A stretch of 64,000 bases of DNA from Spirochaetia bacterium (GCA_965203055.1 OZ241863.1:2112001-2176000); one strand, 5' to 3'. Positions 35,955 to 57,627 are shown, counted from the first letter of the stretch. Notes: generated by a model not told the origin, from the sequence alone. A program made the numbers and translations.

Positions 35955-36011
35955 CTGTTCGGCTCAGATCACGACCGCGTGATCAGCTCTGCGTACCGGT
36001 GTCATCGCCGG

Positions 36012-36815
36012 CTAGCCCATGGCGATGCCGCCGTCCACGTGAATCGCCTGTCCGGTGATGTTGCGCGCCTCTTCGGAAGCCAGGAACGCCACCAGGTTGC
36101 CGACGTCCTCGGGGGTTTGCGGCCGTCCCAGTACGGCGCTCCCGGCCACCTCGTCGAACACCGCGCGCGGTTCCTGCCCGGCGCGGGCGGGATCCTGCGC
36201 CGCCAGCATCGGCGCCAGCCGCTCCCAGAACGGGGTCCACACCAGTCCCGGGCACACCGCATTGACGTTCACGTTGTAAGGCCCCAGTTCCTTGGCCACG
36301 ATGCGGGTGAGGTTGAGCAGCGCGTTCTTGGCCGCGGCGTAGGGCGGCACGAACACCGGGTCGCGCTTCGCCGAGATGGAGGAGATGTTCACGATCTTGC
36401 CACCGCGGCGCTCCATCATGTGCGCCGCCACCGCCTTGCACATGAAGAACGGGCCCTTGACGTTGACGGCGAAGTTTTCGTCCCAGTCGGCGCCGGTCAG
36501 GCGCGTGAACGGCAGGGCGAGGCGTTCGCCGAAGTGGCCGGCGTTGTTGACCACGACGTCCACCTGCCCGAAGCGCTCCAGGGTCTGCCGCACCACCTCC
36601 CCGCAGTCGGCCTCGCTGGTCACGTCGCCGGCGACCGCCAGACCGCGCCGGCCCGCCTGCTCCGCCGCCGCGGCCGTCTGCCGGGCGCGCTCCAGGTCCA
36701 GGTCGGACACCACCACGTCGGCTCCCTCCCGGGTCAGGCAGGCGCAGATGCCGCGGCCCATGCCGCCGCCGCCGCCGGTGACGATGGCCACCTTGTCACG
36801 CAATCGCATGCGCAA
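36012..36815 (-). CDS. SDR family oxidoreductase
   Basis: TGGGGGMG, NNAG, YAAAK, ITGQAIHVDGG. Confidence 0.92.
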   Translation of the reverse strand: MRMRLRDKVAIVTGGGGGMGRGICACLTREGADVVVSDLDLERARQTAAAAEQAGRRGLAVAGDVTSEADCGEVVRQTLERFGQVDVVVNNAGHFGERLALPFTRLTGADWDENFAVNVKGPFFMCKAVAAHMMERRGGKIVNISSISAKRDPVFVPPYAAAKNALLNLTRIVAKELGPYNVNVNAVCPGLVWTPFWERLAPMLAAQDPARAGQEPRAVFDEVAGSAVLGRPQTPEDVGNLVAFLASEEARNITGQAIHVDGGIAMG

Positions 36816-36859
36816 CCGGCTCCGATTGGCCGGCGAACAGGTCCGGTTGCAGGCCGTCT

Positions 36860-37024
36860 TCAGTCACTGGACCCGCGGTGGGCAATCGCCACCGCAGCCG
36901 TCGTGAAGCTGGACGCCGCCGCAACTGCCGCCGGCGTCAGCCCATCACCGAGGTACAGATCGACCACGAGCACCAGGCCGCCCAGGAGGATGGCCAGCGC
37001 ACCGACGGCGAGGTGCCAAGTCAC
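36860..37024 (-). CDS. Small two-TM membrane protein (holin-like, 54 aa)
   Basis: Hand-translated MTWHLAVGALAILLGGLVLVVDLYLGDGLTPAAVAAASSFTTAAVAIAHRGSSD; below the track cutoff. Confidence 0.45.
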   Translation of the reverse strand: MTWHLAVGALAILLGGLVLVVDLYLGDGLTPAAVAAASSFTTAAVAIAHRGSSD

Positions 37025-37135
37025 CGACCGACCTGCTCAGACACGGCGCCCGCCTGCCGCTGCCGCTCCCGCTCCTGCGCCTCGATGATGCGCGAGGTGC
37101 GCCATGTACGGAACTCCGGTGAACCGCGGCCCCAC

Positions 37136-37690
37136 CTACCTGCTCCCTAGCTCATGGCCCAGAAAGAAACTGGCGAGAGCAGTGCCGGCCGTCGCCAGAC
37201 CGTTGACGATCCGCTGTTCGGCAAGCTGCCGTTGCAAGCCGGCGATCTGCTCCCGCTGCACCCGATCCACGTCCCCGGACAGCGCAACCAGCGCCGCGCA
37301 CAGCGCATGCTCGCGCGGCCGATAGACCCTCACCGCGGCCGCCACCGCCTCGGTGACCGCCGCCTGGACGCTCGCGTCATGCGCCGCCGCGATACGCGCC
37401 ATTGCAGTGTCTACGCCAGCCTGCCACGCCCGCTGCAGGCTATCGCGGTCGGCCGCCGAGAGGCTTGTGTACGCCGCCAAGTCCACCGGCGGGAACGCCG
37501 GCAGCCCCGCGTCCGCGGCCGCGTCGGGCGCGGAACCGCCAGCCGGAACCGCCGGCGCGGCGCCGGCGCACAGCGCCGCGGCATCACTCTGCAGGGTGGT
37601 GTCGCCATTCGTGGTCTGCGATAGCGCGAGCCACGGCAGCCCGCACAGCAGGGTCAGCGCCAGCGAGCACCTGATCGTCTGTCTCCCCAT
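37136..37690 (-). CDS. Hypothetical exported protein (possible spanin-like partner)
   Basis: Signal peptide, Pro/Ala-rich linker, helical region and C-terminal hydrophobic segment; overlaps the upstream gene by 107 bp. Confidence 0.55.
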   Translation of the reverse strand: MGRQTIRCSLALTLLCGLPWLALSQTTNGDTTLQSDAAALCAGAAPAVPAGGSAPDAAADAGLPAFPPVDLAAYTSLSAADRDSLQRAWQAGVDTAMARIAAAHDASVQAAVTEAVAAAVRVYRPREHALCAALVALSGDVDRVQREQIAGLQRQLAEQRIVNGLATAGTALASFFLGHELGSR

Positions 37691-37907
37691 CGAGAACCTG
37701 TTCCTCCTGCTGCTCCGCGGCGCGTCCCGCGGCGACTGCCCGGTCGCGCGCCGCCTGGTCGCGCGCCTCGATCTGCGCTTCGGTACGGTCGCCGGCGGCG
37801 CCGTGGTCGAACGTCCGATGCAACACCAGACCCAACGCCATCACCCCGACCGCGGTGATCACCACTATACTCCACACCTTGGCCAGCGAGACACCTACTA
37901 CATGCAT
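37584..37907 (-). CDS. Hypothetical membrane-anchored coiled-coil protein (Rz/i-spanin-like architecture)
   Basis: N-terminal TM helix followed by an Ala/Glu/Gln/Arg-rich helix. Confidence 0.5.
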   Translation of the reverse strand: MHVVGVSLAKVWSIVVITAVGVMALGLVLHRTFDHGAAGDRTEAQIEARDQAARDRAVAAGRAAEQQEEQVLDGETDDQVLAGADPAVRAAVARAIADHEWRHHPAE

Positions 37908-38024
37908 GGCCTACGGTATCACACGTGCCGACCGCTTGACAGCGCCCGCCACCGAAGTATTCAGAAGACGTTAGAGTCCACAAAGACCGAACCGCCCCTC
38001 ACCGAATCGCCCGCGCGGGGCGGC

Positions 38025-38108
38025 GTGGTCGACCGCGGTGCAATCCATCGGCACCTCCTGGACCCAAGTTCCAGAGGCTATGATAAGTTGTTTCTATGTA
38101 GTTGTTTA
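38025..38108 (+). repeat. 84-bp inverted repeat, left copy (partner 50021-50104)
   Basis: 77/84 identity to the reverse complement of 50021-50104 by hand alignment. Confidence 0.9.
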
Positions 38109-38136
38109 CGTATTGTGACTGCATTATGTACGGGGG

Positions 38137-38165
38137 TTGACAACCGAACGGAATCACCTTATACC
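38137..38165 (+). promoter_or_regulatory. Putative sigma70 promoter of lipoprotein A
   Basis: TTGACA-17 nt-TATACC; same arrangement at 47075-47103. Confidence 0.55.
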
Positions 38166-38230
38166 TATCCCTATACCGTCCAGGCGGAATCGTCTCAGGC
38201 TGTCTCCGTTCGCCGGGACAGAGGGGGGAG

Positions 38231-39754
38231 ATGATGAAACATCTGGTGTATCTGGCTCTAGCGGCAGGCGCTCTTGCGATGATGGGATGTGGCGGAGTTG
38301 CACCCCCGAAGCCTGCAGCTCCGCCGGCGGCAGATCCGCCGGCGCCTACAGCGGCCAAGTACTCCTGCGGCGATGGCTACATCTTCGACGGTGATCAAGT
38401 GCTCGGGCCGGAAGGCGCGGTTGTCAATGATGTCTTCTACTGGGGTTCGAACACCTCGGGAGCGGCGCGATGCTTCTCTGACACTCGAAACAACAGTATG
38501 GTTGGCGTTGGCAGCAGGGTAGAATCGAACGCAGGCGATGCCACAGGCGCAACAGTCATGTCAGTTACCCTTCCTGACGAACGCAGGTGGTATTTCATAC
38601 TTGAATTCTCCGATGGCACCTACTGTTCTGCGGCCTCTGCAGGGGATGGGAGAGCGGCCTGCTTTGCAACGGTGGAACGAGATGCTACCGGATTTCGCTT
38701 GGACGATCTCCCTGCTGTTACACTCCCTGTTCCTGCAGGCGCACCGGAGCCTCCTCTTGTTGAAGATCCCCCCGAGCCTCCTGTTGGCAATACTTATTTC
38801 CGGTGGGGAAGGATCGAAGAAGTTACTACCGACCAACGTAGGTGGTATCTCATACTTGGGTACGGTCCTGGTGAGATCGTCGACGGGCGCGACGACGACC
38901 CCGGGCGGGGTGACCCCGCCTGTATTGCGGCTACTGCAGGGGATGGGATAGTGACCTGCACTGCAACAACGTTTCAAGGTAATGGTGACGATAAATATAC
39001 CACAGACGATCTCCCTGCCTCTACCTCGCCTCAATCTTCCGAAGGCACCGATGCCATATATGCGTACATTAGAGTTTTTAGTCGCCAGGGGGGTCTCTGG
39101 TATCTCGTGCTTGAATCCCCTGATGGCACCTTCTGTTCTGCGGCCACTGCAGGGGATGGGATAGTGACCTGCACGAGCCATCCGTATCCTCCGCTGAGTG
39201 GTGATTGGGTCCCCCCCGGTGGTCCTGGTCCTGGTGGTGGCGACGGGGGCGGGGGGCAAACTGGTGCCCCGGAGCCGGAAGATCCTCAGCCTGTTGGCAA
39301 TACTTATTTCCGGTGGGGAAGGATCGAAGAAGTTACTACCGACCAACGTAGGTGGTATCTCATACTTGGGTACGGTCCTGGTGAGATCGTCGACGGGCGC
39401 GACGACGACCCCGGGCGGGGTGACCCCGCCTGTATTGCGGCTACTGCAGGGGATGGGATAGTGACCTGCACTGCAACAACGTTTCAAGGTAATGGTGACG
39501 ATAAATATACCACAGACGATCTCCCTGCCTCTACCTCGCCTCAATCTTCCGAAGGCACCGATGCCATATATGCGTACATTAGAGTTTTTAGTCGCCAGGG
39601 GGGTCTCTGGTATCTCGTGCTTGAATCCCCTGATGGCACCTTCTGTTCTGCGGCCACTGCAGGGGATGGGATAGTGACCTGCACGAGCCATCCGTATCCT
39701 CCGCTGAGTGGTGATTGGGTCCCCCCCGGTGGTCCTGGTCCTGGTGGTGGCTGA
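38231..39754 (+). CDS. Repeat-containing lipoprotein A (unrecognised WYxIL...C-x11-C repeat, 5 copies)
   Basis: Signal MMKHLVYLALAAGALAMMG-C; Pro-rich linkers; lower GC; five CxAAxAGDGxxxC motifs. Confidence 0.85.
   Translation: MMKHLVYLALAAGALAMMGCGGVAPPKPAAPPAADPPAPTAAKYSCGDGYIFDGDQVLGPEGAVVNDVFYWGSNTSGAARCFSDTRNNSMVGVGSRVESNAGDATGATVMSVTLPDERRWYFILEFSDGTYCSAASAGDGRAACFATVERDATGFRLDDLPAVTLPVPAGAPEPPLVEDPPEPPVGNTYFRWGRIEEVTTDQRRWYLILGYGPGEIVDGRDDDPGRGDPACIAATAGDGIVTCTATTFQGNGDDKYTTDDLPASTSPQSSEGTDAIYAYIRVFSRQGGLWYLVLESPDGTFCSAATAGDGIVTCTSHPYPPLSGDWVPPGGPGPGGGDGGGGQTGAPEPEDPQPVGNTYFRWGRIEEVTTDQRRWYLILGYGPGEIVDGRDDDPGRGDPACIAATAGDGIVTCTATTFQGNGDDKYTTDDLPASTSPQSSEGTDAIYAYIRVFSRQGGLWYLVLESPDGTFCSAATAGDGIVTCTSHPYPPLSGDWVPPGGPGPGGG
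38780..39751 (+). repeat. Identical 462-bp direct repeats (38780-39241 and 39290-39751), period 510 bp
   Basis: Direct sequence identity; in-frame duplication. Confidence 0.93.
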
Positions 39755-39990
39755 GGCTGAGGCGGCTGAGGTGGTCCCGGTTGGTTAGACAGTCCGAGGG
39801 GTAGGTTAAGGTGTATCCGTCGGTTGTCAACCTACCCCTCCCTCTGCAAATCAGGCGGCGGTAAATCGGGGGTGGGGTCCGGGGCGGGGGTAGCTGTCCC
39901 TGTGGATATGTGGACAACTCCCGCTCCGCGGTGCGCAGCCACTCGCTCCGTTCCCGGTGCTTGCAGTTTGCCCCCCCCCCCCCCATCTCG

Positions 39991-40823
39991 CTACGCCACC
40001 TGCCCGGCCGGCGCCGCCACGCCGCAGTACCCCTCCGCCGGCGTCCGCCCGTCCAGCGCCGAGTGGGGGCGTACCTCGTTGTAGAACTCCATCCACTCCG
40101 CGATCACGCGCTGCGCCGCGAAGCCGTCCGCCAACTCGTGCAGGTACACCGCCTCATACTTCAACGACCGCCACAGCCGCTCGATGAACACGTTGTCCAG
40201 GCAGCGCCCACGACCGTCCATCGAGCAGCGTATCCCGGCCGCCTCCAACTGCCCCGTGAACGCCCTGCTGGTGAACTGGCTGCCCTGATCGGTGTTGAAG
40301 ACCTCCGGCTTGCCGTAGCGCTCCTGCGCCTGTGCCAACGCCAGCAGGCAGAACTCGCTGTCCAGCGTATTCGCCAGTTCCCAGGCCAGCACCCGCCGAC
40401 TCGCCCAGTCCATCACCGCCACCAAGTACAGGTACCCGTCCTGCACCGGGATATAGGTGATGTCTGCGCACCACACCTGATTCGGTCGCGTAATGGTAAG
40501 CCCTCTCAACAGATACGGATACACTTGATGGTCCGGGTTCGGCACCGTGGTGCGCGGCTTGCGGTAGATCGCCTCCAACCCCAGCAGCCGCATCAGCCGT
40601 CGCACCCGGTGGCGCCCCGCCGTTACCCCTCCCGCGCCAGATGCCGGGCCAGCTGCCGACTGCCGTAGAACGGGTACTTCAGGTACAACTCGTCGATGCG
40701 GCGCATCAAGCTGAGCGTCGCCGCGCTGGCTCCGCGCGGTCGGTAGTACAGGGCCGAGCGGCATACGCCGAGCAGCCGGCACTGCCGACTCAAGCTGAGA
40801 CTCGAATGCTCGCGGTCAACCAT
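39991..40823 (-). pseudogene. IS3 orfB (DDE integrase core), frameshifted near 40625
   Basis: LSRQCRLL..YGSR in one frame; WCADITYI, NTDQGSQF, DNVFIERLWRSLKYE in another; break falls in a G run. Confidence 0.85.
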
Positions 40824-40843
40824 CAGCCGTCGTTGCTCCAGGC

Positions 40844-41128
40844 TCAGCGATCGAGCCCGCGCGCTAAAAAATCACGCTCCACGGTCAACTCGCCAATCTT
40901 GGCATGGAGGTCATGGATGAGCGCCTCCTGCTCGGCGGGGCCGCGCTTGGCGGTCGCGGCGAACAGTTCTTCGAGTCCGGTCTGGGCTTGCCGCTTCCAG
41001 ACGCTGACCTGATTTGGATGAACGTGGTGCTTGGCAGCGATCGCCTGGATCGTGCGGTCCCAGCGGAACGCCTCCAGCGCCACCCTGGCTTTGAACTGTG
41101 CTGTGAATCGGCGTCGTTTCGTCGCCAT
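40844..41128 (-). CDS. IS3 orfA (HTH transposase subunit)
   Basis: KRRRFTAQFKARVALEA...VHPNQVSVWK...KIGELTVERDFL; T6 run near the orfA/orfB junction. Confidence 0.9.
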   Translation of the reverse strand: MATKRRRFTAQFKARVALEAFRWDRTIQAIAAKHHVHPNQVSVWKRQAQTGLEELFAATAKRGPAEQEALIHDLHAKIGELTVERDFLARGLDR

Positions 41129-41195
41129 CCCATCGGCCCTCCTCATGGCCTGGAATACACCTTAACCTCCTGTCCAATTTTCCGGGACCACCTCA

Positions 41196-41370
41196 CCTCA
41201 ATCTTCCGAAGGCACCGATGCCATAGCTGCGGTAGTGGGACTTCGCTCTAGCCAGTGGTAATCTCATACTTGAATCCCCTGATGGCACCTTCTGTTCTGC
41301 GGCCACTGCAGGGGATGGGATAGTGACCTGCACGAGCCATCCGTTTCCTGCTCCGTTTCCTGGGCTATGA
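41196..41370 (+). pseudogene. Silent fragment of the lipoprotein repeat (variant C-terminal unit)
   Basis: PQSSEGTDAI-AAVVGLRSSQW/LILESPDGTFCSAATAGDGIVTCTSHPFPAPFPGL*; scaffold DNA nearly identical to lipoprotein A, different loop and tail, 1-nt frameshift. Confidence 0.85.
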
Positions 41371-41637
41371 AGTGAACCGGGGCTCTGCAGGCATGGCCGC
41401 GGCGCGCTTGTAGCCGATGCGACCGGCCAGCAGCCAATGATAGCCGTAGAACTGCGAGCTGGTGGTGCGGGCCGCCCCGTGGGCGCACGCGGCCAGCAGC
41501 CGCCTTCCACCAGAAAATCCTACGATTTCGCGTGCGAACGGGCGTTGACGCGGGCTGGCGCCGGGCCAGCGGCGGCCTTCGGAGCCCTTGCGCCCCCGGC
41601 CGTTGGTGGGTAGATTCTCTGTCAGGAGGGAGGTGAG

Positions 41638-44577
41638 ATGCGTTGGCGTGATGCAGGTGACTCCGGTGGTGGGTCGGCGGCCGGGAGTAGTGGGACCCTG
41701 AACAAGGCGTCGCTGTATGCCCTGTTGAAGACCATTCTACAGTCGTCCGAGAGGGTGCACGTCGAGGCGGACGATCCGCATTTCAGGCTGACGCTGTCGC
41801 TGACTGACGATGCTCGGGTGGTCCTTGAGGGTGCTGTCCAGGTGGACGGTATCGATCTCTCCGGGCGTGATCTGGGGTTCTCCAGTGACGGGGGGAGCAG
41901 TGTCAGCTTCACGATGCCCGGCATCACGACGGCGGATGAGGGAAGCGACCTCGGGCGGGTAAATACCGTCGAGAAGCTCAACTTCACAGGCGCGGGCGTG
42001 ACGGCGACGCGCGTGCCCGGTTCGCCTGAGACTACCGTCAACATTCCCGGCGCCAACCCTGGGTCGGGCGGTGTGTCGTTGGCGCAGGTGGACGGGCGGA
42101 TCGATGGGAATCCGCGGGTGACGAGTCTGTCGCGCTTCGAGGCGGCGCTCCGCAAGACCACCGTCATCAGCGGACCCGCTGCCTTCACGGTGGCGTCGCC
42201 GAACGCCGCGGTGGCGATCAGCGGGTCGGTGCCGGGCGCGGAAGCGGACCGCGAGCTGGTGGTGGCGGTGACCGGCTCCCCCACCCAGACGTTCCAGCTC
42301 TCCTCGTTCGCCGGCAAGGATGCGGCCGCCGCCGCCATCACGCTCACGGACGCCAACTCGGTAAAGTGGATGGCGGGCACGGTGACGTATCGCCTTGGCC
42401 ACACCGCCGCCGGGGGGTTCGTTGCGTCCGCCAGTACCGCCGCCACCTACACCATCACCTTGACGGACAGCCGGATCGACCTTGAGACGTGGGCGCGGCG
42501 AAACGGCGAGCAGATTCCCGCCAACCGCCTGCCGAACGGCGGCGGGCTGGGGCAGGCTGCGGTGGACGCGCGGATCGACGCGAATCCGCGGGTGACGAGT
42601 CTGTCGCGCTTCGAGGCGGCGCTCCGCAAGACGACCGTCATCAGCGGACCCGCTGCCTTCACGGTGGCGTCGCCGAACGCCGCGGTGGCGATCAGCGGGT
42701 CGGTGCCGGGCGCGGAAGCGGACCGCGAGCTGGTGGTGGCGGTGACCGGCTCCCCCACCCAGACGTTTCAGCTCTCCTCGTTCGCCGGCAAGGATGCGGC
42801 CGCCGCCGCCATCACGCTCACGGACGCCAACTCGGTAAAGTGGATGGCGGGCACGGTGACGTATCGCCTTGGCCACACCGCCGCCGGGGGGTTCGTTGCG
42901 TCCGCCAGTACCGCCGGCACCTACACCATCACCTTGACGGACAGCCGGATCGACCTGGAGGGTTGGGCGCGGTTGAACGGCGGTCAGATCCCCGCCAACC
43001 GCCTGCCGAACGGCGGCGGTCTGACCCAGGGGCAGGTGGACGCGCGCATCGAGCCGTTCGCGCGCGCCGGCACCACCACCAGGGTGCCGGAATCGCACCT
43101 CCCGACCGACCTCGACCACCTTCTGGACGCGCTGGCCGACGGCGGGTGGTCCACGGAGGGGAACAACGCCGCCGAGGATGCCTGGATCGCCCAGGTTGCC
43201 AGCGCCGTGGGCCCGACCATCGGGGCGGCGCGCGGCTACACCTACGCCAGCGCCACCTGGGAGCGGACCGGCCCCACGATTACGCCGGCGTGGCTGACCG
43301 TGCGGGTGCCGGCGGGGCTGAAGGATGAGGTGGCCGCCGGGAACCTGCGTCTGATCGCCGACTACAACAACGACCCGGACGACATGGGCGATATCGCGGT
43401 GTCGAGTGGCTGGATCCACGTGGGGGACAGCACGGACGGCACCTACCGGTACTACATCCAGCGCTTCACGGGGGTGCCGGCGGGAACCAACATCGTGCAG
43501 CGCTACACCCGGTTCCGCATCGACCGCACCAAGCTCGACACCGGGGTGCCGGTGGGGACGGCGGCGGATGCAGGCGCCGTCCTGACCAAGCGCGCTGATG
43601 GGCCGGTCTGGGAGCAACTGCGGCGCCTGCACGGTCTGCAGGTGCTGCATCACGGGAGCATCGCCCGATTGGCCCTTTCCGCCTTGAATGCGATTGGGAC
43701 CCAGAACCTGACCGGCTTCGCCCCGGCGTTCGATCTCGATGATCACCCTGCCGGTGAGATCCATGCGGAGGTGGTGGCGCGCATCGTCACGCGGAGTGCG
43801 TCCAACATCGGGTGGGGCTCTGGTGGCGCGGACATTGATGGCCGGATCGTGGGGTTGGAGTTCGCCAGCGCCGTGGCGGCCGCTGATGCGTTTGTGTCGG
43901 GGGGCACGGTAGAGGGGGTCGAGGTTGGCCACCTCCTCCTTTACAAGGGTGCGGCGAAGCAGGGCGTGCTGCGGTTCTATCTGGGGCGTGACGGCTCGAA
44001 TCGTGCCGGGTATCTGCTCGACTACCGGCCGGAGAGCGGTGCTTCGAGTACCGACAACGTCACCATCGACGCGCAGCTCGACGTGTCGTTCATGCCGGCG
44101 GACGGTGGTGGTGGCAGTACTAGCGGCGTAGGCGCCAAGATTGCGACCTACGCGTTTCCAGTTGCCGCAGCGAGTTACCAGGCCAGGGTCATGATCCACG
44201 GCACATGGACCATCGAAAGCGCTGGCGCCTCGCGATACGAGCGAAGCGGTAACAACGATGCCCTGCGCATCCCGCGGGTTCTGCCGGATACGCAAGTGGG
44301 CTTTCGCGGTGTAGTGAAGGTTGGTTCTGCTACGGTATCGACATTCTTCGTGCCGTGGACGCTGCTGGTTGCGCCATCAACCACTAGCACTCACTTTGAT
44401 CATGTCAATCAGGACTACTACATGACCATTCCTTACGATGCTCGGGATAGTTATACCGTCCTGCTTATCGTGCAACGGCAGGGCTTGAATACCTATAAGG
44501 ACGCTATCTTCTTCCGCGGCTGCGGCGACAATATTCCGGCTGGTGTGACCGTCGAGTTGTACGAGTGGATGGCGTGA
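41638..44577 (+). CDS. Large Gly/Ala/Thr-rich tail-fibre/adhesin-like protein A (979 aa)
   Basis: Strong SD AGGAGGGAGG; 158-aa internal repeat; VEKLNFTGAGVTAT and QVDARI segments reminiscent of phage fibres; no signal peptide. Product is inferred. Confidence 0.7.
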   Translation: MRWRDAGDSGGGSAAGSSGTLNKASLYALLKTILQSSERVHVEADDPHFRLTLSLTDDARVVLEGAVQVDGIDLSGRDLGFSSDGGSSVSFTMPGITTADEGSDLGRVNTVEKLNFTGAGVTATRVPGSPETTVNIPGANPGSGGVSLAQVDGRIDGNPRVTSLSRFEAALRKTTVISGPAAFTVASPNAAVAISGSVPGAEADRELVVAVTGSPTQTFQLSSFAGKDAAAAAITLTDANSVKWMAGTVTYRLGHTAAGGFVASASTAATYTITLTDSRIDLETWARRNGEQIPANRLPNGGGLGQAAVDARIDANPRVTSLSRFEAALRKTTVISGPAAFTVASPNAAVAISGSVPGAEADRELVVAVTGSPTQTFQLSSFAGKDAAAAAITLTDANSVKWMAGTVTYRLGHTAAGGFVASASTAGTYTITLTDSRIDLEGWARLNGGQIPANRLPNGGGLTQGQVDARIEPFARAGTTTRVPESHLPTDLDHLLDALADGGWSTEGNNAAEDAWIAQVASAVGPTIGAARGYTYASATWERTGPTITPAWLTVRVPAGLKDEVAAGNLRLIADYNNDPDDMGDIAVSSGWIHVGDSTDGTYRYYIQRFTGVPAGTNIVQRYTRFRIDRTKLDTGVPVGTAADAGAVLTKRADGPVWEQLRRLHGLQVLHHGSIARLALSALNAIGTQNLTGFAPAFDLDDHPAGEIHAEVVARIVTRSASNIGWGSGGADIDGRIVGLEFASAVAAADAFVSGGTVEGVEVGHLLLYKGAAKQGVLRFYLGRDGSNRAGYLLDYRPESGASSTDNVTIDAQLDVSFMPADGGGGSTSGVGAKIATYAFPVAAASYQARVMIHGTWTIESAGASRYERSGNNDALRIPRVLPDTQVGFRGVVKVGSATVSTFFVPWTLLVAPSTTSTHFDHVNQDYYMTIPYDARDSYTVLLIVQRQGLNTYKDAIFFRGCGDNIPAGVTVELYEWMA
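42087..43034 (+). repeat. 474-bp tandem repeat (2 near-identical copies) within protein A
   Basis: 42108.. and 42582.. are near-identical at an offset of 474 bp. Confidence 0.92.
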
Positions 44578-45653
44578 TGGACTCGCCGTCATTCCCGACC
44601 GGTCGTTCCGCGCCTGACGCGCGCGCCGTGCGGCCGCTGGCGAACGCGCCGCCGGCCTCCCCGGCCCGGACCGTGCGCAACGCCGCCCCGGCCCGGACCG
44701 TGCGCAACGCCGCTCCGCGGACCGTGCCGGCGCTCGACAGCGACATCGAATCCCTGGTCACCGAGGATGATACGCCGGTGGACAACCTGCCCTCCGAGAA
44801 GCAGCAACGCCTGCTCACCGAGCCGTTGTACAGTTCCTGGGCCGGCCCCGGCGGCGGGCGCCCGTTTCTGGCCGCCGCCAACGTGGGCGTGTTCCCTGAA
44901 GCGCGCAATCCGGCGATCGTGCCGGACGTGTTGCTGAGTCTGGACGTGCAGGTGCACGAGAACTGGTGGGACAAGGAGCACCGCTCCTACTTCGTGTGGG
45001 AGTTCGGCAAGGCGCCGGACCTGGTGGTGGAAATCGTGTCCAACCGGAAGGGCGAGGAGATTGGGAAGAAGCGGATGAGGTACGCCCGGATGGGGGTTGG
45101 CTACTACGTGGTCTCCGATCCGTTGCGGCAGGTGATGGGAGATGAGCTGCGCGTCTTTCGGTTGAGCGGCGGGGGATACGAACGCCAGGAGTGGCCCTGG
45201 TTCCCGGAGCTGGGGCTGGGGATGACGCTGTGGGAGGGGGAGTTCGAGGGCGTGCGCAGCCGGTGGCTGCGCTGGACGGACGCGCAGGGCGAGTTGATCC
45301 CCACCGGCAAGCAGCGTGCAGAGCAGCAACAGCAGCGCGCAGAGCAGGAGGCGGCCGCTCGCCAGGCCGCAGAGACCCGTGTCCAACAGGAGGCGGCCGC
45401 GCGCCGCCAGGAAGCGGACGCACGCCAAGCCGCAGAAATCCGCGTCCAACAGGAGGCGGCCGCCCGCCGCCAGGAAGCGGACGCACGCCAAGCCGCAGAA
45501 ATCCGCGTCCAACAGGAGGCGGCCGCCCGCCGCCAGGAAGCGGACGCACGCCAAGCCGCAGAAATCCGCGTCCAACAGGAGGCGGCCGCGCGCCAAGCGG
45601 CCGAAGCGCGGGTGGCCGAACTCGAGGCATTGCTAGGCCGCAGATCCACCTGA
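44577..45653 (+). CDS. Uma2/DUF820 family endonuclease with coiled-coil repeat tail
   Basis: LVTEDDTPVDN, IVPDVLLSL, YFVWEFGKAPDLVVEIVSN, WLRWTD..GELIPTG; TGATG overlap with upstream stop. Confidence 0.9.
   Translation: MDSPSFPTGRSAPDARAVRPLANAPPASPARTVRNAAPARTVRNAAPRTVPALDSDIESLVTEDDTPVDNLPSEKQQRLLTEPLYSSWAGPGGGRPFLAAANVGVFPEARNPAIVPDVLLSLDVQVHENWWDKEHRSYFVWEFGKAPDLVVEIVSNRKGEEIGKKRMRYARMGVGYYVVSDPLRQVMGDELRVFRLSGGGYERQEWPWFPELGLGMTLWEGEFEGVRSRWLRWTDAQGELIPTGKQRAEQQQQRAEQEAAARQAAETRVQQEAAARRQEADARQAAEIRVQQEAAARRQEADARQAAEIRVQQEAAARRQEADARQAAEIRVQQEAAARQAAEARVAELEALLGRRST
45381..45605 (+). repeat. 63-bp tandem repeat (VQQEAAARRQEADARQAAEIR, about 3.5 copies)
   Basis: Unit starts at 45381, 45444, 45507, 45570. 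Confidence 0.92.
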
Positions 45654-45887
45654 CGCTATCTGCGTCGGAAGTGGCCCGGCGGCCCTCGGCTCGGCTGGCT
45701 TGGATAGCTTGGCTCTCGCTGGATTCCCAGAATAGATCGCTGGCCCGGACGGCCCTGCAATGTCCAGCGCTGCCGGAACGTCCCGATCGCCGGCGCTCCG
45801 CGGGTGCCAAGTGCGGCAGTTGACCCGCTACCGGCGATGTTTGGTCGGCGAGCGCAGCCGGGCGCGCAAGACCCTCGACCACGTCGC

Positions 45888-46775
45888 TCACACGTTATAG
45901 CGCTCGAACCGGCCGGCGATGTTCCGGCGGGTAGCTTCCTCCTGCGAAATGAGCTGGCTGGCGGAGAGGCCCGTCAGGTTCTCCATCTGCTCCAATCGCC
46001 GGGCGAACAACGGCAGCCCCAGTTGCTCCGCTCCCCCAGCCTGCGACGTAGTGCTGCCGATGAGAATGTTGTTGGCTGCTTCCAGCTTCGACCGCCCATG
46101 CATGACGTCCCGCACGTACTTGCCGGCCCAGCCCGGGCCGGCATTCCACGCCAGCCCCATGAGCCCGCCTGCCTGCCGGACCGTCCCCACCAGACCCTTG
46201 GTGATGGCATCCGCCACCGGAGCCCAGTGCGACCGCCACAATGCGCCCGTGCGCATGATCTGGTTATTCGACATCCCTTCGTCGACGCGCAGACGTTCCG
46301 CCTCATCGGCGCGGCGTGCGGCAGCTCCCCAATCCGCCCCGAAGTTCTCGCCGGCAAGCGTCGCCCAGGTGTCGCCGGCGTCCCTGTAGACGCCGTTCCG
46401 CACCATCTCGCCATTGATTTCCTCGCCGTCGTTGCGCTTGTCGATCCACCGTTCCTTGCCGATCAGCGACTCGATGATCTGATCGTATTGCTGATCCGTG
46501 CCCTGCCATCGATCCCGGTTCGTGCGCCGGTCATCATTCACCGGTTCGACGGCCCGCGAACCTCCGGTGATCCGGATCACCTGACCGGGATGGATCAGAT
46601 CCGGGTTCTCGATGTTGTTCCGCTGGGCCAGCGCTTGCACCGTCGTGCCGTACCGGCGCGCGATGGCGCCCAGGGTCTCCCCCGGGCGCACCGTATGGGT
46701 CTGCGTCTCCGGAGACCGCGCCTGCCGGCGCCCCGGATGCCCCGGCGCGGCGCCAAACGGAGTATCTGATGCCAT
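45888..46775 (-). CDS. LysM domain protein with putative lysozyme-like C-terminal domain
   Basis: HTVRPGETLGAIARRYGTTVQALAQRNNIENPDLIHPGQVIRI is a clear LysM; VYRDAGDTWAT and GLAWNAG resemble GH24 motifs (tentative); GGAGG before ATG 46775. Confidence 0.75.
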   Translation of the reverse strand: MASDTPFGAAPGHPGRRQARSPETQTHTVRPGETLGAIARRYGTTVQALAQRNNIENPDLIHPGQVIRITGGSRAVEPVNDDRRTNRDRWQGTDQQYDQIIESLIGKERWIDKRNDGEEINGEMVRNGVYRDAGDTWATLAGENFGADWGAAARRADEAERLRVDEGMSNNQIMRTGALWRSHWAPVADAITKGLVGTVRQAGGLMGLAWNAGPGWAGKYVRDVMHGRSKLEAANNILIGSTTSQAGGAEQLGLPLFARRLEQMENLTGLSASQLISQEEATRRNIAGRFERYNV

Positions 46776-46867
46776 CCTGCGATCCTCCCATTGACCAGTG
46801 GCGGCGTCGAAGTATACCCCCAATATCCGCCCTCGTCACCTCCTCGATGGCGGGCGGGCGACGGCGC

Positions 46868-47012
46868 GCGCATTTCCAAAATGCAGGTAAGGGTCGGGCC
46901 GCTTGGCGGCCAAGCCCAGTCCCCGGCTGCGCCGGCGCCTGAGCCGATACCTTCGCCGCCGAAGGAGCGGCGCTGTCCGCGCTGGCCACCGCAGCGCCGC
47001 GCGCCGAGGCCG
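46868..47012 (-). repeat. Internally deleted remnant of the HNH locus at 57526-58983
   Basis: 46868-46919 matches 57526-57580 and 46922-46982 matches 58049-58109. Confidence 0.85.
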
Positions 47013-47074
47013 CTAAGGATAACTTGTTTCCATGTCGTTGTTTATCATATTATGGACTGCATTGTGTACGGGGG

Positions 47075-47103
47075 TTGACAGCCGAACGGAATCACCTTAA
47101 CTT
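47075..47103 (+). promoter_or_regulatory. Putative sigma70 promoter of lipoprotein B
   Basis: TTGACA-17 nt-TAACTT; paralogous to 38137-38165. Confidence 0.55.
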
Positions 47104-47166
47104 ACCAACATATGCCGTCCAGGCGGCATCGCCTCAGTGCTGTCTCCGCTTGCGGGACCGGGGGGA

Positions 47167-48498
47167 ATGATGAAGCATCTGGTGTATCTGGCTCTAGCGG
47201 CAGGCGCTATTGCGGTGACAGGATGTGACGACGTTGCAGCTCCGAAGCCTGCAGCTCCGCTGGCGGCCGCACCGGCGCCTACACCGGCGGCCGAGTACTC
47301 CTGCGGCGATGGCTACATCTTCGACAGTGATCAAGTGCCCGGGCCGGAAGGCGCGGTCGTCAACGATGTCTTCTACTGGGGTTCGAGCACCTCGGGAGCG
47401 GCGCGATGCTTCTCTGACACTCGAAACAACAGCATAGTCGGCAGGGTAGAATCGAACGCGGGCGATGCCATAGCCGCAACAACCATGTCAGTTACCCTTT
47501 CCGGCGAACGCAGGTGGTATCTCATACTTGAATTCTCCGATGGCACCTACTGTTCTGCGGCCACTGCAGGGGATGGGAGAGCGACCTGCTTTGCAACGGT
47601 GGAACGAGATGCTACTGGATTTCGCGTAGACGATCTCCCTGCTGTTCCACTTCCTGTTCCTGAAGGCGCACCGGAGCGTCCTGTTGTAGATCCTCCCGGT
47701 GGTCCCGGTCCTGGTGGTGGCGACGTGGGCGGGGGGCATACCGGTGCCCCGGAGCCTGCCCCGAAGCCGGAAAAGAGGAAATTCAAGAATGCAAGGGTCG
47801 CCTATATTGCGGACCCGGATCAGAGCCGAGGCGGCGTTGACCGCCTGAGATTCGTTACCCGGGAGGGATTGGACGATTACGACGATCTTCCTGACGAACG
47901 TAGGTTGTATTTAATACTTAAGTTGAACGTTCCACGTGACGGTTACATCACCTCTCATAATTGTATTGTGGCTACTACAGGGAATGGGAGAGTGACCTGC
48001 GTTGCACCGTTGAAATTCTGGTGGGACCATTCTCACTGCAGCGACGGCGAATGCAATGGAGACGGTGATGGTCATATTCGGTTTACATATAACGCCACAG
48101 GACGGACCGCGCCGCATCCATCAGTAGACCATTTCCCTACCTCTACCTCGCCTCAATCTTCCGACGGCGACAATGCCATAGGCGTGACAGCCTATCTCCT
48201 CTATAGTGATGTGCAAAGCAACCCTCGCCACTATGGCAGGGAGACTTTTTACGTACCTCCAGGCTGGCCTAGTTCTCCTAGCACAGATAGGTGGTATTTC
48301 ATACTTGCATTCTCCGACCTCCACCCGCATCGCCCGTTTGATCTCGATCTCGATCCAAACGGGGTCAATGATCATACCTTCTGTATTGCGGCAACTAAAG
48401 GTGATGGAATAGTGACCTGCCATGAAATGGTGAAAGGAGTTTCTACTAAATATGCGAATGGTTACATTGACCAATGGGAAGTACCATACGTGCCGTAG
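47167..48498 (+). CDS. Repeat-containing lipoprotein B (paralog of A; 3 C-x11-C repeats)
   Basis: Signal ending VTG-C; first ~175 aa highly similar to A, later units have different loops. Confidence 0.85.
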   Translation: MMKHLVYLALAAGAIAVTGCDDVAAPKPAAPLAAAPAPTPAAEYSCGDGYIFDSDQVPGPEGAVVNDVFYWGSSTSGAARCFSDTRNNSIVGRVESNAGDAIAATTMSVTLSGERRWYLILEFSDGTYCSAATAGDGRATCFATVERDATGFRVDDLPAVPLPVPEGAPERPVVDPPGGPGPGGGDVGGGHTGAPEPAPKPEKRKFKNARVAYIADPDQSRGGVDRLRFVTREGLDDYDDLPDERRLYLILKLNVPRDGYITSHNCIVATTGNGRVTCVAPLKFWWDHSHCSDGECNGDGDGHIRFTYNATGRTAPHPSVDHFPTSTSPQSSDGDNAIGVTAYLLYSDVQSNPRHYGRETFYVPPGWPSSPSTDRWYFILAFSDLHPHRPFDLDLDPNGVNDHTFCIAATKGDGIVTCHEMVKGVSTKYANGYIDQWEVPYVP

Positions 48499-48508
48499 CG
48501 GTGAGCGG

Positions 48509-48552
48509 TGAGGTGGTCACCGGTTGGTTAGACAGTCCGAGGGGTAGGTTAA
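48509..48552. mobile_element. Orphan IS3 end (copy of 39767-39809)
   Basis: TGAGGTGGTC(A)CCGGTTGGTTAGACAGTCCGAGGGGTAGGTTAA. Confidence 0.88.
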
Positions 48553-48601
48553 CCGAGATTCTCAACTACTGCAAGGCCACCCTGATCTCAATCCACAAGA
48601 C

Positions 48602-48630
48602 TTGACAATATCTCAGAACACCGGTAATTT
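48602..48630 (+). promoter_or_regulatory. Putative sigma70 promoter upstream of protein B
   Basis: TTGACA-17 nt-TAATTT. Confidence 0.6.
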
Positions 48631-48791
48631 TGGTACGAAGCGGTCCCGCCGACTACTGGCCGCGAATGGCTTGTCGTTGCGGGACCCGGACATCTGAACG
48701 GGCGCGGGCTGGCGCCGGGCCGGCGGCGGCCTCGGAGCCCCTCGGCCCCCGGCCGTTGGTGGGGTAGATTCTCTGTCAGGAGGTAGGTGAT

Positions 48792-49796
48792 ATGCGTTGG
48801 CGTGATGCAGGTGACTCCGGTGGCGGGTCGGTGGCCGGGAGTAGTGGGAGTTTTGAGGAAGCGCTACGGCGCGTAACTGTCATTGTGGACGGAGATACCG
48901 TCAACATTTTGAATCGTCCTGCTCCCTATCGGATAAGCAGCGATGCTATAGTTCCTGAGAGAGAGGCTGACAGGAGGCTACGGTTGGCGGCGAGCACGTC
49001 GGCTATTGATTCTGCGGAACTGGACGGCGAGTCTACCACGATCAAGCTGTCCGATCTTCTCGCCAAGCAGGTGATTCCGACTCGCTCGCATGTGATGAAC
49101 TCGTCCAACTCGGTGACGTTCCGGGGCGTTGAGGGTAGGACGATGTACATTGGGACGATGTACATTGGCAGGTCAGAAGATCGCCAGTTCCTGATCGGTT
49201 CCGACTCCCCCAGTACCTATCGCGTCTACATCCGTGACGACCGGATTGACATTCGCCCGGAGCGCCTCGAAAGGACGGTTGATGACCGCATCAAGCCGTT
49301 CGCGCGCGCCGGCGCCACCCCCACCAAGATTGCGACCTACAGTTTTCCACCTGCCGATTTAGAGCCGTACCCGGCGGGTACTCCTATCAACGGCAGTTGG
49401 CTCATCGCAAGCACCGCTACCCCCGATCGATACGAGCCAAGCGATGACAACATTGCCCTGCGCATCCCGCGGAATCTGCCGGCTACGCTATCGGGCTTTT
49501 ACGGTGAAGTGAAGGTTGGTTCTACTAAGGTATCGACATTCATCGTGCCGTGGACGCTGGTGGTTGCGCCCACTAGCACTAGCGCTCTCACACTTAACGC
49601 TCATAATGTCGAGCAGGGCTATTACATGACCATTCCTGACAATAATCAGAATGGTTATAGCGTCATGCTTGTCGTGCAACGGCAGGCCGTAAATAACTAT
49701 AAGGACGCTATCTACTTCCGGGGCTGCGGCAACAATATTCCGGCTATTCCGGCTGGTGTGCCCGTGACCGTCGATTTGTACGAGTTGTTGTCGTGA
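48792..49796 (+). CDS. Tail-fibre/adhesin-like protein B (short paralog of 41638-44577)
   Basis: Shares upstream region, N-terminus MRWRDAGDSGGGS.AGSSG, RIxPFARAG and the C-terminal KIATY..FP...YKDAI.FRGCG.NIPA domain. Confidence 0.78.
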   Translation: MRWRDAGDSGGGSVAGSSGSFEEALRRVTVIVDGDTVNILNRPAPYRISSDAIVPEREADRRLRLAASTSAIDSAELDGESTTIKLSDLLAKQVIPTRSHVMNSSNSVTFRGVEGRTMYIGTMYIGRSEDRQFLIGSDSPSTYRVYIRDDRIDIRPERLERTVDDRIKPFARAGATPTKIATYSFPPADLEPYPAGTPINGSWLIASTATPDRYEPSDDNIALRIPRNLPATLSGFYGEVKVGSTKVSTFIVPWTLVVAPTSTSALTLNAHNVEQGYYMTIPDNNQNGYSVMLVVQRQAVNNYKDAIYFRGCGNNIPAIPAGVPVTVDLYELLS

Positions 49797-50020
49797 CGGC
49801 CAATGGCCCTCGCGTACCGTGACAGACAACTTCGGCGGCGGCGTGAATGAGCGGTCGCCGGTATGGCGGCGAGGCGCGACGGCAGCGCTCCGGTGGTGAA
49901 CCGGCCGCCCCCGGCAACCGCAACGGCGCCGTCCACTGCCGTGCCGTCCATGACACTGAGCACCGATCACCAGGGTTACCACGGTCCGGCGCAACGGCGA
50001 GTCCTATCCGATCCGATCGA

Positions 50021-50104
50021 TAAACAACGACATAGAAATAAGTTATCATAGCCTCTGGAACTTGGGTCCGGGAGGTACCGATGGATTGCACCGCTCTCGA
50101 CCAC
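50021..50104 (-). repeat. 84-bp inverted repeat, right copy (partner 38025-38108)
   Basis: See left copy. Confidence 0.9.
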
Positions 50105-50107
50105 TTC

Positions 50108-50194
50108 ACCTATAAGGACGCTATCTTCTTCCGCGGCTGCGGCTACAATATTCCGGCTGGTGTGACCGTCGAGTTGTACGAGTGGATGGCGTGA
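50108..50194 (+). pseudogene. Third, silent copy of the 3' end of the tail-fibre-like genes
   Basis: 86/87 identical to 44491-44577, followed by the 23 nt found downstream of protein B (49797-49819). Confidence 0.9.
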
Positions 50195-50335
50195 CGGCCA
50201 ATGGCCCTCGCGTACCGCGCTGCGGTCGTGGTTCGAGGTGGCGACCGGCAAATCGTACACCCGGTCGGTTACCACGGTCCAGCGCAGAATAACTCGCTGG
50301 CCCGGACGGCCCCGCAATGTCCAGCGCGCGGGCGT

Positions 50336-51598
50336 TCAGACCGGAAGCTGAATGGCGGCGTAGGGGTACACCGCCGCCTTGGCGCCGCGCGGGAAGCGCG
50401 CGGTGAGGTGCGTCATTACTTCGCTCCAGTCAGCGCACGCCACTACCTGGCCGCCGCGGCCGTAGCCGTCCAGGTCGGTGCGTGACTGGTAGCGCGAGCA
50501 GACCAGGAGCTGCCCGGCCTTGCGGATCGGGCAGTGCTCGACCGGTGACCAGATGCTGCCGCCGTAGTCGGTGCCGAAGCGGCCGCCGAGGTAGTGCGCC
50601 GCCTGTCCCTCGACGCTCTGGCAGATCACCACCGCGGTCCCGCCCTCCTTGAGGGAGAGATCGGGCGGCCACATCCCCTTCACCGCCTGATTCTCGATCG
50701 GGTAGGTGTTGGTCACCACCACCTCGCAGTCGCCGGCCATGGCGGTGGCGTACAGCTTCCGCGCCGCGGCCACGCCGGCGCGGTGCTGCTCCACGAACTG
50801 GCCGGCCAGCACCTGCACCACCTCGCGCCGCGGGTTGATCAGCAGATCGATCTTGAAGTCCAGGCCCACCATGGCGACTGCTTCTTCCAGGTCCCGGCGG
50901 ATCACGCTGTCTTCGATGTTGCCGAGCAGATCGACCCCGCCGGCGCCGTCCGCGCGCCGCGCCGCGGCGTCACGGCGGCCGAGGACGCGGTGGTTGTGAT
51001 CCACGGTGGCGATGCCGGCGACGCCCGGCACGAGCAGCTTGGCGCCGCCGCCGAACCCGGCCGAGCGATGCGGAATGAGACCGCCGATGCCAATCCGCAG
51101 ATCGCATTCCATCACCTCGCGGTTGATTTCCACGCGCGTGCCGCGGCTGGTGGTGCCCACCTCGACCAGGTGGTCGAACGGATTGTGATTGTAGACCCGG
51201 TAGCGGCGCACCACCTCCGCGCCCAGCTTCTTGGTGAAGTCTTCGAGGGACATCGCCGCGTGATTGGCGAATGCGCCTACCAGCCGAATCCGGTCCTCCT
51301 CCAGACCGGCGGCGCGCAGCTCGGCCAGCACCAGCGGCAGGATGCGCCAGGTGGGCGCCGGCCGGGTGAGGTCGTCGAACAGGATTACCGCCTGCTTGCG
51401 GCCGCGCGCCAACTCGCGCAGCCGCGCGGTGCCCAGCGGGCGCTCCAGTTGGGCGCGGAGCTGGGCGTCGTCGAGGGCAACGGCGTCGTGCCCGGCCATC
51501 AGGCACTCCCGTACCTGCCAGGAGGCCGGGAACCGCAGCTCCATGTCGCGGTCCCCGTACCAGGCGTGGGTGGGTATTCGGATCGTCGTGCTATCCAT
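50336..51598 (-). CDS. LarA-family (lactate racemase-like) nickel-pincer enzyme
   Basis: DDLTRP, ANH, GTTSRGT, PHRSAGFGGGAK; substrate unknown. Confidence 0.88.
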   Translation of the reverse strand: MDSTTIRIPTHAWYGDRDMELRFPASWQVRECLMAGHDAVALDDAQLRAQLERPLGTARLRELARGRKQAVILFDDLTRPAPTWRILPLVLAELRAAGLEEDRIRLVGAFANHAAMSLEDFTKKLGAEVVRRYRVYNHNPFDHLVEVGTTSRGTRVEINREVMECDLRIGIGGLIPHRSAGFGGGAKLLVPGVAGIATVDHNHRVLGRRDAAARRADGAGGVDLLGNIEDSVIRRDLEEAVAMVGLDFKIDLLINPRREVVQVLAGQFVEQHRAGVAAARKLYATAMAGDCEVVVTNTYPIENQAVKGMWPPDLSLKEGGTAVVICQSVEGQAAHYLGGRFGTDYGGSIWSPVEHCPIRKAGQLLVCSRYQSRTDLDGYGRGGQVVACADWSEVMTHLTARFPRGAKAAVYPYAAIQLPV

Positions 51599-51629
51599 GG
51601 CGGCGTGCAGTGTGCGCCGGGAGCGCGCC

Positions 51630-57340: not shown

Positions 57341-57627
57341 CAGCGTGCAGCCCCTCCTCCTCCGCCTCGGGCACCGGTGAATCGGCGGAGGCGCCGGACG
57401 GAATCAGGCGTGGAGTCAGGGCAGCAATCCCTCTACACTCCGGGAGCGCCGCAGGAACGCCCACCGGCAAGATTCCGCGAGTATGTCACGCCGCTCCCCA
57501 CCGGTCAAGCAAGCGCCCGCGGTGGGCGCATTTCCAAAATGTAGGTAAGCGTCAGGCCGCTTGGCGGCCAAGCCCAAGTCCCAGTGTAAGATGACGTTCT
57601 CGGCGATCTTGATCACCGGTTTCTTGA

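Follow-up and report, generated by a model that had tools for sequence, protein, structure and literature searches.

Two diverged lipoprotein and phage-type fibre gene cassettes in a probable strain-variable island of a Spirochaetia genome

The stretch analysed here, which we call the window, comprises 64,000 nucleotides (nt) of a Spirochaetia bacterium genome (GCA_965203055.1; G000:C1:2112001-2176000), a single contig of 4.56 Mb with a GC content of about 70%; positions are counted from the first letter of the window. Within it, a block of about 12 kb holds two pairs of a predicted lipoprotein gene and a gene resembling those of phage tail fibres. Judged from its sequence, the block is probably a strain-variable chromosomal island of foreign, lower-GC DNA, which holds two diverged copies of one ancestral cassette composed of a promoter, a lipoprotein gene, an IS3-family insertion sequence (IS), a leader and a phage-type fibre gene. 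The partial gene copies and the inverted repeat found in the block would be scars of rearrangement and not parts of a switch. We lean slightly towards the fuller reading that adds a function and takes the block as a strain-variable receptor-binding cassette of phage type, reshaped by ordinary recombination.

An earlier note on this DNA described the order promoter, lipoprotein gene, IS3 end, leader and fibre-like gene as occurring twice, and every one of these elements is recovered by sequence comparison in both modules, here named A and B. The promoter and the 5′ part of the lipoprotein gene are 87.7% identical between the modules (38082-38774 versus 47018-47698), the IS3 end 95.9% (39762-39809 versus 48505-48552), the leader with the first 19 fibre codons 93.2% (41549-41695 versus 48703-48849), and the 3′ part of the fibre gene 76.8% (44135-44580 versus 49324-49799). 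The near-identical 5′ ends and distal divergence reported for both gene types are borne out by the alignments of both families. The 84-nt inverted repeats that bracket the block are present as well (38025-38108 versus 50021-50104, 92% complementary), with no further copy in the 4.56-Mb genome. A simple tandem duplication is ruled out for the modules, as the region 45771-47017, with the LysM gene and the repeat ends, has no counterpart left of 38082.

The IS3 ends of the two modules match as the note described, but module A holds a complete IS3-family element and module B only a remnant. The element shows the features of the family, namely orfA (HTH_Tnp_1, 4.1e-11) and orfB (rve, 1.8e-25) between TG...CA terminal inverted repeats and several genome copies; those elsewhere lie at 1.135 Mb (98.6% identical) and 4.287 Mb. 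It has no target-site duplication, its flanks being GGC and CCT, which makes it a marker of rearrangement and not a simple insertion. A remnant of the IS3 end with the same few flanking bases also lies 3′ of lipoprotein gene B in G011, an independent assembly of a different genus. The same end and flank in modules A and B and in G011 suggest that IS3 predates the split of the modules and was later mostly deleted in B.

The two partial gene copies, which the earlier note had taken for silent donors, are explained differently by the alignments. Lipoprotein gene A is truncated 12 nt before the IS3 end, and across the element the segment 41190-41349 is 82.8% identical to the lipoprotein repeat at 39023-39190. 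The segment 41196-41370 matches the intact relative P0021 in two different frames, at 95% over residues 434-452 and at 85% over residues 462-494, indicating that it is the cut-off 3′ end of lipoprotein gene A, now a pseudogene fragment; in place of a donor copy there is a frameshifted distal piece of an IS3-split gene. The supposed fibre donor at 50108-50194 is instead a conserved 3′ end of 28 codons inside a duplicated flank. Here, 50108-50197 is 97.8% identical to the 3′ end of fibre gene A (44491-44580), and the match between the two right flanks resumes after the Uma2 element, showing that the fibre 3′ end and its flank were duplicated as one piece. There is one partial copy per gene, and each represents the conserved 3′ end, not the variable part.

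The composition of the block differs from that of the chromosome, with a GC content of 57-65% below the roughly 70% of the genome. At third codon positions, the GC content (GC3) of the neighbouring genes is about 0.9, whereas both lipoprotein genes are at about 0.5 and fibre gene B at 0.5-0.78, pointing to a foreign composition. Contigs from public sequencing runs show alternative joints across studies, suggesting strain variability. In contigs of two other studies, only 25 other letters separate 38018 from 45881, module A being absent and the LysM gene abutting the left flank. A joint between 38077 and 47018 is seen in one study, and in two the IS3 end at 41195 is followed by 41577, the lipoprotein remnant being absent.

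The stretch is present in public runs from 7 studies, some of which are labelled sponge metagenome, and no RNA dataset is among the public runs listed as holding it. Public-run contigs match without mismatch over 37000-38272 (the left junction), 48813-50137 (fibre gene B through the right arm) and 50108-51000 (beyond), where the run that gave these contigs may be the sample from which the window was assembled; no single public contig spans the whole block. In the independent assembly G011, both lipoprotein genes are found at 96-97% nucleotide identity, and gene A has its two-unit tandem repeat there as well. With mismatch-free junction contigs and both lipoprotein genes in G011, the assembly artefact that the earlier note had raised against its own proposal is unlikely.

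The fibre-like genes are of phage-tail origin, as the earlier note had supposed. The word-index search for relatives returned 10 clusters, and the profile search returned 1005 relatives at E<=1e-3 and 526 at 1e-10; P0009-P0012 match the fibre query at 38-44% identity over 98-99% of its length. The longer relatives (about 1200 residues) start with about 200 residues that are absent from the window proteins, and in P0011 this N-terminal part is the Pfam domain SU10_adaptor (4.4e-9). Among 41 further relatives, five carry SU10_adaptor, one a phage tail tip domain and one collagen repeats. The genome G010, which belongs to the same genus, has a 1281-residue adaptor-fibre gene next to genes for a major head protein, a portal of SU10/P22 type, a large terminase and an integrase, resembling a podovirus prophage. 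In viral contigs and JGI metagenome contigs, no confirmed fibre relative was found, and PADLOC returned no match to the fibre proteins.

In phage SU10, a dodecamer of the adaptor (gp11) docks the long tail fibres, as the consulted part of PMC9509320 describes. Like this system, the longer fibre relatives begin with an SU10_adaptor domain; unlike it, they fuse adaptor and fibre in one protein, and the window copies start after the adaptor, without a part for docking. In the alignment, the window proteins start at the linker just behind the adaptor part of the long relatives, the open frame extending only 8 codons further upstream, and the virion-attaching N-terminal part is not present in them. 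They share homology with the SU10-like lineage, then, but neither its virion-attaching part nor a phage or prophage location. A search of this genome for the SU10_adaptor family gave no match, but the control genomes gave none either, so that this search is uninformative. The fibre gene would descend from the adaptor-fibre fusion protein of SU10-like podoviruses, and the window fibres would have lost the adaptor as their virion-docking domain and retained beta domains in tandem, with a head of the jelly-roll type known from fibre tips.

The AlphaFold model of fibre protein B (mean predicted local distance difference test score [pLDDT] of 82) comprises two beta domains, of which the first (residues 24-152) resembles the T7 gp17 tip (Z 5.6). 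The second (residues 175-334) is a jelly roll, and its best matches are a monocin side fibre (Z 6.1), fibre domains of cyanophages and phage K, and the heads of TNF, C1q and BclA. Foldseek gave no match for fibre protein B at E<=0.001, the ESM Atlas gave scores no higher than 0.76, and the jelly-roll capsid and coat matches of the BFVD fold search were set aside with their low TM-scores. As all Z values are below 8 and there is no Foldseek match, the fold supports the fibre-tip reading without proving it.

A third full-length fibre gene lies outside the window (genome 1045813-1048746), and fibre gene A is 96.6% identical to it in DNA over the first 2 kb, after which the two diverge. All three copies share the leader and 19 codons; the N-terminus, MRWRDAGDSGGG, has no hydrophobic stretch, and only 19 residues are common to the copies. 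At the third copy, the shared homology begins only 90 nt upstream of the ATG, and the gene adjoins large minus-strand genes of 1452, 750 and 433 residues (G000:C1 1035001-1055000). Fibre gene A has an internal tandem duplication of 474 nt (42087-42578 and 42561-43052). The ratio of nonsynonymous to synonymous substitution rates (dN/dS), calculated by the crude Nei-Gojobori method, is 0.33 for the first 1914 nt of fibre gene A compared with the third copy and 2.25 between the head domains of A and B (12.9 synonymous and 82.1 nonsynonymous differences), a value that recombination can inflate.

The upstream genes are predicted to encode lipoproteins from the lipobox motifs VTGC and MMGC, read by eye from the sequence. 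Lipoprotein gene A contains an exact tandem repeat with a period of 510 (38780-39241 and 39290-39751), and gene B is 97% identical in nucleotides to its G011 orthologue. The search for relatives found 17 clusters. Across 18 aligned sequences, the signal peptide, including its Cys, is almost invariant, as are residues 45-180 or so, and this N-domain is followed by a Pro/Gly-rich linker and then by one of several unrelated distal architectures. The lipoproteins match no Pfam, NCBIfam or PHROGs family above threshold and have no PADLOC match, and none of the 18 relatives matches any Pfam family above the cut-off of that family. The structure prediction for lipoprotein B (mean pLDDT 37) is too poor for a fold search. 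The dN/dS between the lipoprotein orthologues of G000, the genome of the window, and G011 is 0.6-0.8. In G011, the two lipoprotein genes lie 10.6 kb apart among IS and ATPase genes, with flanks unrelated to those of the window; the match is limited to the genes themselves, suggesting a recent horizontal spread. The lipoprotein scan of genome contigs returned G011 only, and that of metagenome contigs a single weak match of 39 residues.

Polymorphic toxin loci (compare PMC3482391) and other multigene loci with orphan 3′ fragments have an invariant N-terminal part, abruptly unrelated C-terminal parts and displaced 3′ fragments downstream, as is seen for the lipoprotein genes. Unlike in those loci, there is no toxin domain in any of the 18 lipoprotein relatives and no immunity-like gene following, and the toxin reading was set aside. 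No small, immunity-like open reading frame (ORF) lies between lipoprotein gene B and the IS3 remnant, and toxin folds not yet known could escape Pfam.

The remaining features of the block are listed in Table 1. The Uma2-family element of about 1.1 kb has at least three other full genome copies (82-85% identity) and looks mobile, though it has no transposase inside; its gene, of a putative restriction endonuclease fold, contains four 63-nt tandem repeats (45282-45594). A further copy of the repeat element whose two ends precede module B is found at 57520-58117, adjoining an ORF at 57973-58983. The strict consensus promoter scan did not list the promoter-like site of upstream block A, which was read by eye, and terminator-like sites are rarer than in shuffled sequence. 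A run of G residues immediately before the -35 hexamer in the lipoprotein B promoter (47070-47085) reads G5 here and G6-A-G9 in G011, a variation that could possibly alter the strength of this promoter. Upstream of the promoter in G011 (G011:C1, about 1077750), the 27-nt arm core recurs in inverted orientation.

The chromosomal genes around the block are ordinary. Its left neighbours are glnA, glnE, a LigD primase-polymerase, a short-chain dehydrogenase and a small secreted-looking protein, its right neighbours a LarA-like gene, a PolX-type polymerase and an ABC transporter, and the 29 window ORFs scanned are housekeeping or restriction genes. Upstream of the block, the window also holds a YhgA-like transposase gene (4068-5180) and a type I restriction HsdM methylase gene (6964-8832). 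No Rfam family is found within 36000-52000 and no tRNA gene within the window.

Table 1. Positions of the features of the block and its two modules, counted from the first letter of the window
Feature	Position	Strand	Description
Inverted repeat, left arm	38025..38108		Inner 27 nt are the start of the promoter block common to module B
Upstream block A	38082..38230	+	Promoter-like site (TTGACA, 17-nt spacer, TATACC) and GGAG ribosome site, read by eye
Predicted lipoprotein A	38231..39754	+	507 residues; signal peptide with Cys, invariant N-domain, Cys-containing repeat units
IS3-family element, complete	39767..41195	-	orfB (rve) 39991-40782, orfA (HTH_Tnp_1) 40844-41146; terminal inverted repeats TGAGGTGGTCCCGG
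Severed lipoprotein A 3′ end	41196..41370	+	Corresponds to the final 61 residues of P0021, an intact relative
Leader A	41549..41637	+	Upstream of fibre gene A; common to all three fibre copies of the genome
Fibre-like gene A	41638..44577	+	979 residues; no adaptor domain, no signal peptide
Uma2-family element	44577..45715	+	ORF 44565-45653; inserted exactly at the stop codon of fibre gene A
Right-flank copy	45728..45770		Matches 50285-50327 at 93%
LysM-domain protein gene	45888..46823	-	Host-like GC3
Repeat element ends	46849..47013		Two ends, interior missing; dozens of genome copies of the element
Upstream block B	47018..47166	+	Conserved with block A
Predicted lipoprotein B	47167..48498	+	MMKH start, ORF from GTG at 47137; N-domain as in A, distal part differs
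IS3 end remnant	48505..48552		Left flank same as in module A
Leader B	48703..48791	+	Conserved
Fibre-like gene B	48792..49796	+	334 residues; 19 N-terminal residues as in A, one beta domain, predicted C-terminal jelly-roll head
Insert	49820..50107		288 nt between the two fibre 3′ end copies; dispersed repeat 49859-49972 and right inverted-repeat arm 50021-50104
Partial fibre 3′ end	50108..50217	+	28 codons and stop, 98% to fibre gene A; then 20 nt of downstream sequence common to fibre gene B

The N-domain links the window lipoproteins to a wider family, the link being drawn at 23-27% identity to P0180, which has the N-domain (alignment A7). This wider family is found in 7 of the 92 genomes searched at order level, all of them in one taxonomic family; by our own grouping of the listed matches, about 14 of its genes are in G010, 13 in G012, 6 in G000 and 5 in G011. 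The recurrent pairing that the earlier note expected is seen at two loci of G010 and is missing from G011, from G012 and at the third fibre copy, and the lack of linkage elsewhere that the note had named as fatal to its proposal accordingly applies to G011 and to the third copy but not to the G010 loci. At 885-894 kb of G010, two wider-family lipoprotein genes are interleaved with three fibre-like genes near a prophage, and at 491-498.7 kb two lie between fibre-like genes of 838 and 273 residues, with no phage gene among the called ORFs. In total, 4 of the 14 lipoprotein genes of G010 (2 of 10 loci) are within 3 kb of a fibre match, for which random placement gives P of about 0.005. The assembly of G011 (96% complete) holds both window-type lipoprotein genes and no fibre match by protein or profile. 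None of the roughly 13 lipoprotein-family genes of G012 adjoins its two fibre-head matches, no lipoprotein match was found near the third fibre copy of G000, and the native-type lipoprotein genes of G000 at 2.96-2.97 Mb have no fibre gene alongside.

Short fragments matching positions 42-91, 47-84 and 632-656 of the fibre profile lie between full fibre-like genes at G010:C1 887124-887578, indicating that fragmentary fibre copies occur in the cluster of the congener too. Genes of the combined AAA-ATPase_like and PDDEXK_9 type (N-terminus MxxRRKLPIGIQTFR) repeatedly flank lipoprotein-family and fibre-like genes, both in G010 and at 2.96-3.00 Mb of G000.

In the favoured reading, homologous exchange at the conserved 5′ blocks would replace the distal domains among strains and phages, and further variation would come from tandem duplication, from insertion of IS3, the Uma2 element and repeat elements, and from deletions. 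The diversification by duplication and gene conversion that the earlier note proposed survives to the extent that the duplication is real and distal parts have been exchanged; the partial copies are not donors. The lipoprotein would be exported from its own promoter and serve as the fibre's partner in specificity at the envelope, masking or mimicking the receptor recognised by the fibre head by the logic of T5 Llp or Cor. Such a role would explain the joint transfer and joint diversification of the two genes and the persistence of the lipoprotein alone in G011. This mode of working is drawn by analogy, and we put it forward only tentatively, as a possible but doubtful part of the reading.

The analogy is with T5 pb5 and Llp and with the Cor-type genes behind gpJ of lambdoid and T1-like phages, where, in the portion of PMC9586334 consulted, a receptor-binding gene has an adjacent lipoprotein gene whose product blocks the same receptor. 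As in these phages (PMC9586334, same portion), a receptor-binding-type fibre gene here adjoins a lipoprotein gene as a unit, with both genes variable between relatives; the adjacency occurs twice in the window and, with distant relatives, at the two G010 loci. Unlike the Llp and Cor genes, the lipoprotein genes form a chromosomal multigene family, and the unit lies in a chromosome without detectable phage. Neither the small size of Llp and Cor nor a sequence relation to them is found, there being no PHROGs, Pfam or NCBIfam family above threshold.

Several observations weigh against the favoured reading. The lipoproteins have 450-507 residues where an Llp-like role would lead one to expect less than 10 kDa, are encoded upstream of the fibre, and match nothing in PHROGs or PADLOC, and their N-domain also occurs in the larger chromosomal lipoprotein family, there with FN3-like and Calx-beta parts. 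The G010-type portal, the terminase phrog_38 and the HK97 capsid have no match in this genome, in which no phage particle to use the fibre was thus found. The fold matches of the fibre lie at Z 4-6.1, all below the Z of 8 under which, according to the tool, a match possibly reflects a mere common arrangement. Scars by themselves do not account for the recurrence of the lipoprotein family beside adaptor-less fibre genes at two G010 loci, one of which has no phage gene nearby, nor for the intact state of both promoters and of all four ORFs, although long frames are common at 70% GC.

The main rival to the favoured reading is a host-domesticated two-part surface system, in which the lipoprotein would be the dock or partner, at the cell surface, of a phage-derived trimeric fibre that the bacterium displays or releases for adhesion or recognition within the sponge, with paralogous pairs supplying different tips. 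The interleaved genes at the two G010 loci, one of them without a phage gene, and their low probability under random placement speak for it, as do the promoter, leader and open frames retained by both modules, the head-domain dN/dS above 1, and the lack of a phage structural gene in this genome by three informative searches. A cellular precedent exists in the mosaic adhesive trimer (MAT) fibres of Bdellovibrio bacteriovorus, which, in the part of the source that we used, are likewise cell-encoded and phage-like, with many paralogues and exchangeable tips (PMC10769870). Tip domains of Bd2439 are among the weak fold matches of the fibre (Z 3.7), and the likeness is one of architecture and weak fold matches, without a demonstrated sequence relation. 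In MAT proteins, a signal peptide is followed by a conserved domain of about 130 residues at the N-terminus (PMC10769870), and the fibres described here have neither. With no signal peptide on any fibre protein read, export would be left unexplained, and the lipoprotein genes of G011 without a fibre, the absence of pairs in G012, the solitary third fibre copy and the interruption of lipoprotein gene A by IS3 also count against a working pair. We regard this alternative as unlikely.

In a more specific form, phage fibres without a docking part and a lineage-specific lipoprotein family would have been recruited as a cellular two-part recognition system in a sponge-associated lineage. The lipoprotein would be a surface dock or receptor mimic, the jelly-roll-headed fibre an exchangeable binding tip, and the pair would have been multiplied into paralogous pairs and diversified through positive selection on the head. 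This is a rather improbable scenario. If true, it would supply a partner for cell-displayed fibres, which is still sought for the MAT proteins, whose surface anchor is still called unidentified in the consulted part of PMC10769870.

The block could also represent the decaying tail remains of a prophage without present function, their frames being open since stops are rare in high-GC DNA. On the minus strand, an antisense frame of 852 codons (41737-44295) is equally open across fibre gene A, and long open frames are thus weak coding evidence in DNA of 70% GC. The insertions of IS3, the Uma2 element and repeat elements, the truncated lipoprotein gene A, the adaptor loss, the lack of phage genes nearby and the lipoprotein dN/dS between G000 and G011 would all fit decay. 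At the GC3 of 0.5-0.78 in the lipoprotein genes and fibre gene B, however, chance frames of 334-507 codons are not expected, and the lipoprotein genes have been kept at 96-97% identity in a different genus between unrelated flanks. The dN/dS values of the fibre, 0.33 in the first 1914 nt and 2.25 in the heads, are not about 1 and, as estimates from sequence, argue against simple decay. As an account of the whole block, decay seems quite improbable.

In the cassette systems of spirochaetes (vlsE/vls and vmp), as in the invertible segments of fibre genes in Mu (G) and P1 (C), variable surface lipoproteins or alternative fibre ends arise from extra copies. The block differs from these systems in having no silent-cassette array, no invertase and no repeats placed for a swap of coding ends. 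The cassette-based antigenic variation suggested in the earlier note is therefore unsupported, the block offering one fragment per gene, conserved 3′ ends and no silent array. We found neither an expression site with several silent cassettes covering the variable region, as in vls or pilS, nor a site-specific invertase with repeats that swap alternative coding ends, as in Mu G, P1 C or shufflons. The absence of a dedicated recombinase or reverse transcriptase, remarked on in the note, agrees with our scan of 15 island and 29 window ORFs, which gave none beyond the IS3 transposase, and no invertase or tyrosine or serine recombinase. One arm of the inverted repeat precedes promoter A and the other follows fibre gene B, a placement in which an inversion would join no coding ends. 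No strand-changing joint is among the 15 joints listed of 40 in the contigs of 4 runs, which is weak evidence against inversion since contigs drop rare variants and 25 joints lie beyond those listed. Programmed variation, with the partial copies donating by gene conversion or the 84-nt repeats driving inversion, is the least supported reading and very unlikely: partial copies and inverted repeats exist and the conserved 5′ blocks could act as recombination handles, but each gene has a single partial copy of its conserved 3′ end, one being a frameshifted piece of an IS-split gene, the scanned ORFs include no such recombinase and no reverse transcriptase, and neither the arms nor the listed joints speak for an inversion.

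Exchangeable tips in fibre genes, the placing of lipoprotein genes next to receptor-binding genes, and islands scrambled by IS elements are already known. What may be new is the large polymorphic lipoprotein family, the adaptor-less fibre genes outside a detectable phage, and their repeated adjacency within one genus. A literature search on the combination yielded nothing describing this pair, which is a thin basis for claiming novelty. As it stands, the locus mainly shows how traffic of IS and repeat elements can imitate a cassette system. With about 1000 unannotated fibre relatives and a lipoprotein N-domain without a Pfam family, a function for either protein would annotate many genes. If the pairing is functional, the locus points to fibre genes that persist without a phage, and the logic of receptor-binding protein and lipoprotein known from coliphages would extend to large polymorphic lipoproteins in an uncultured marine symbiont.

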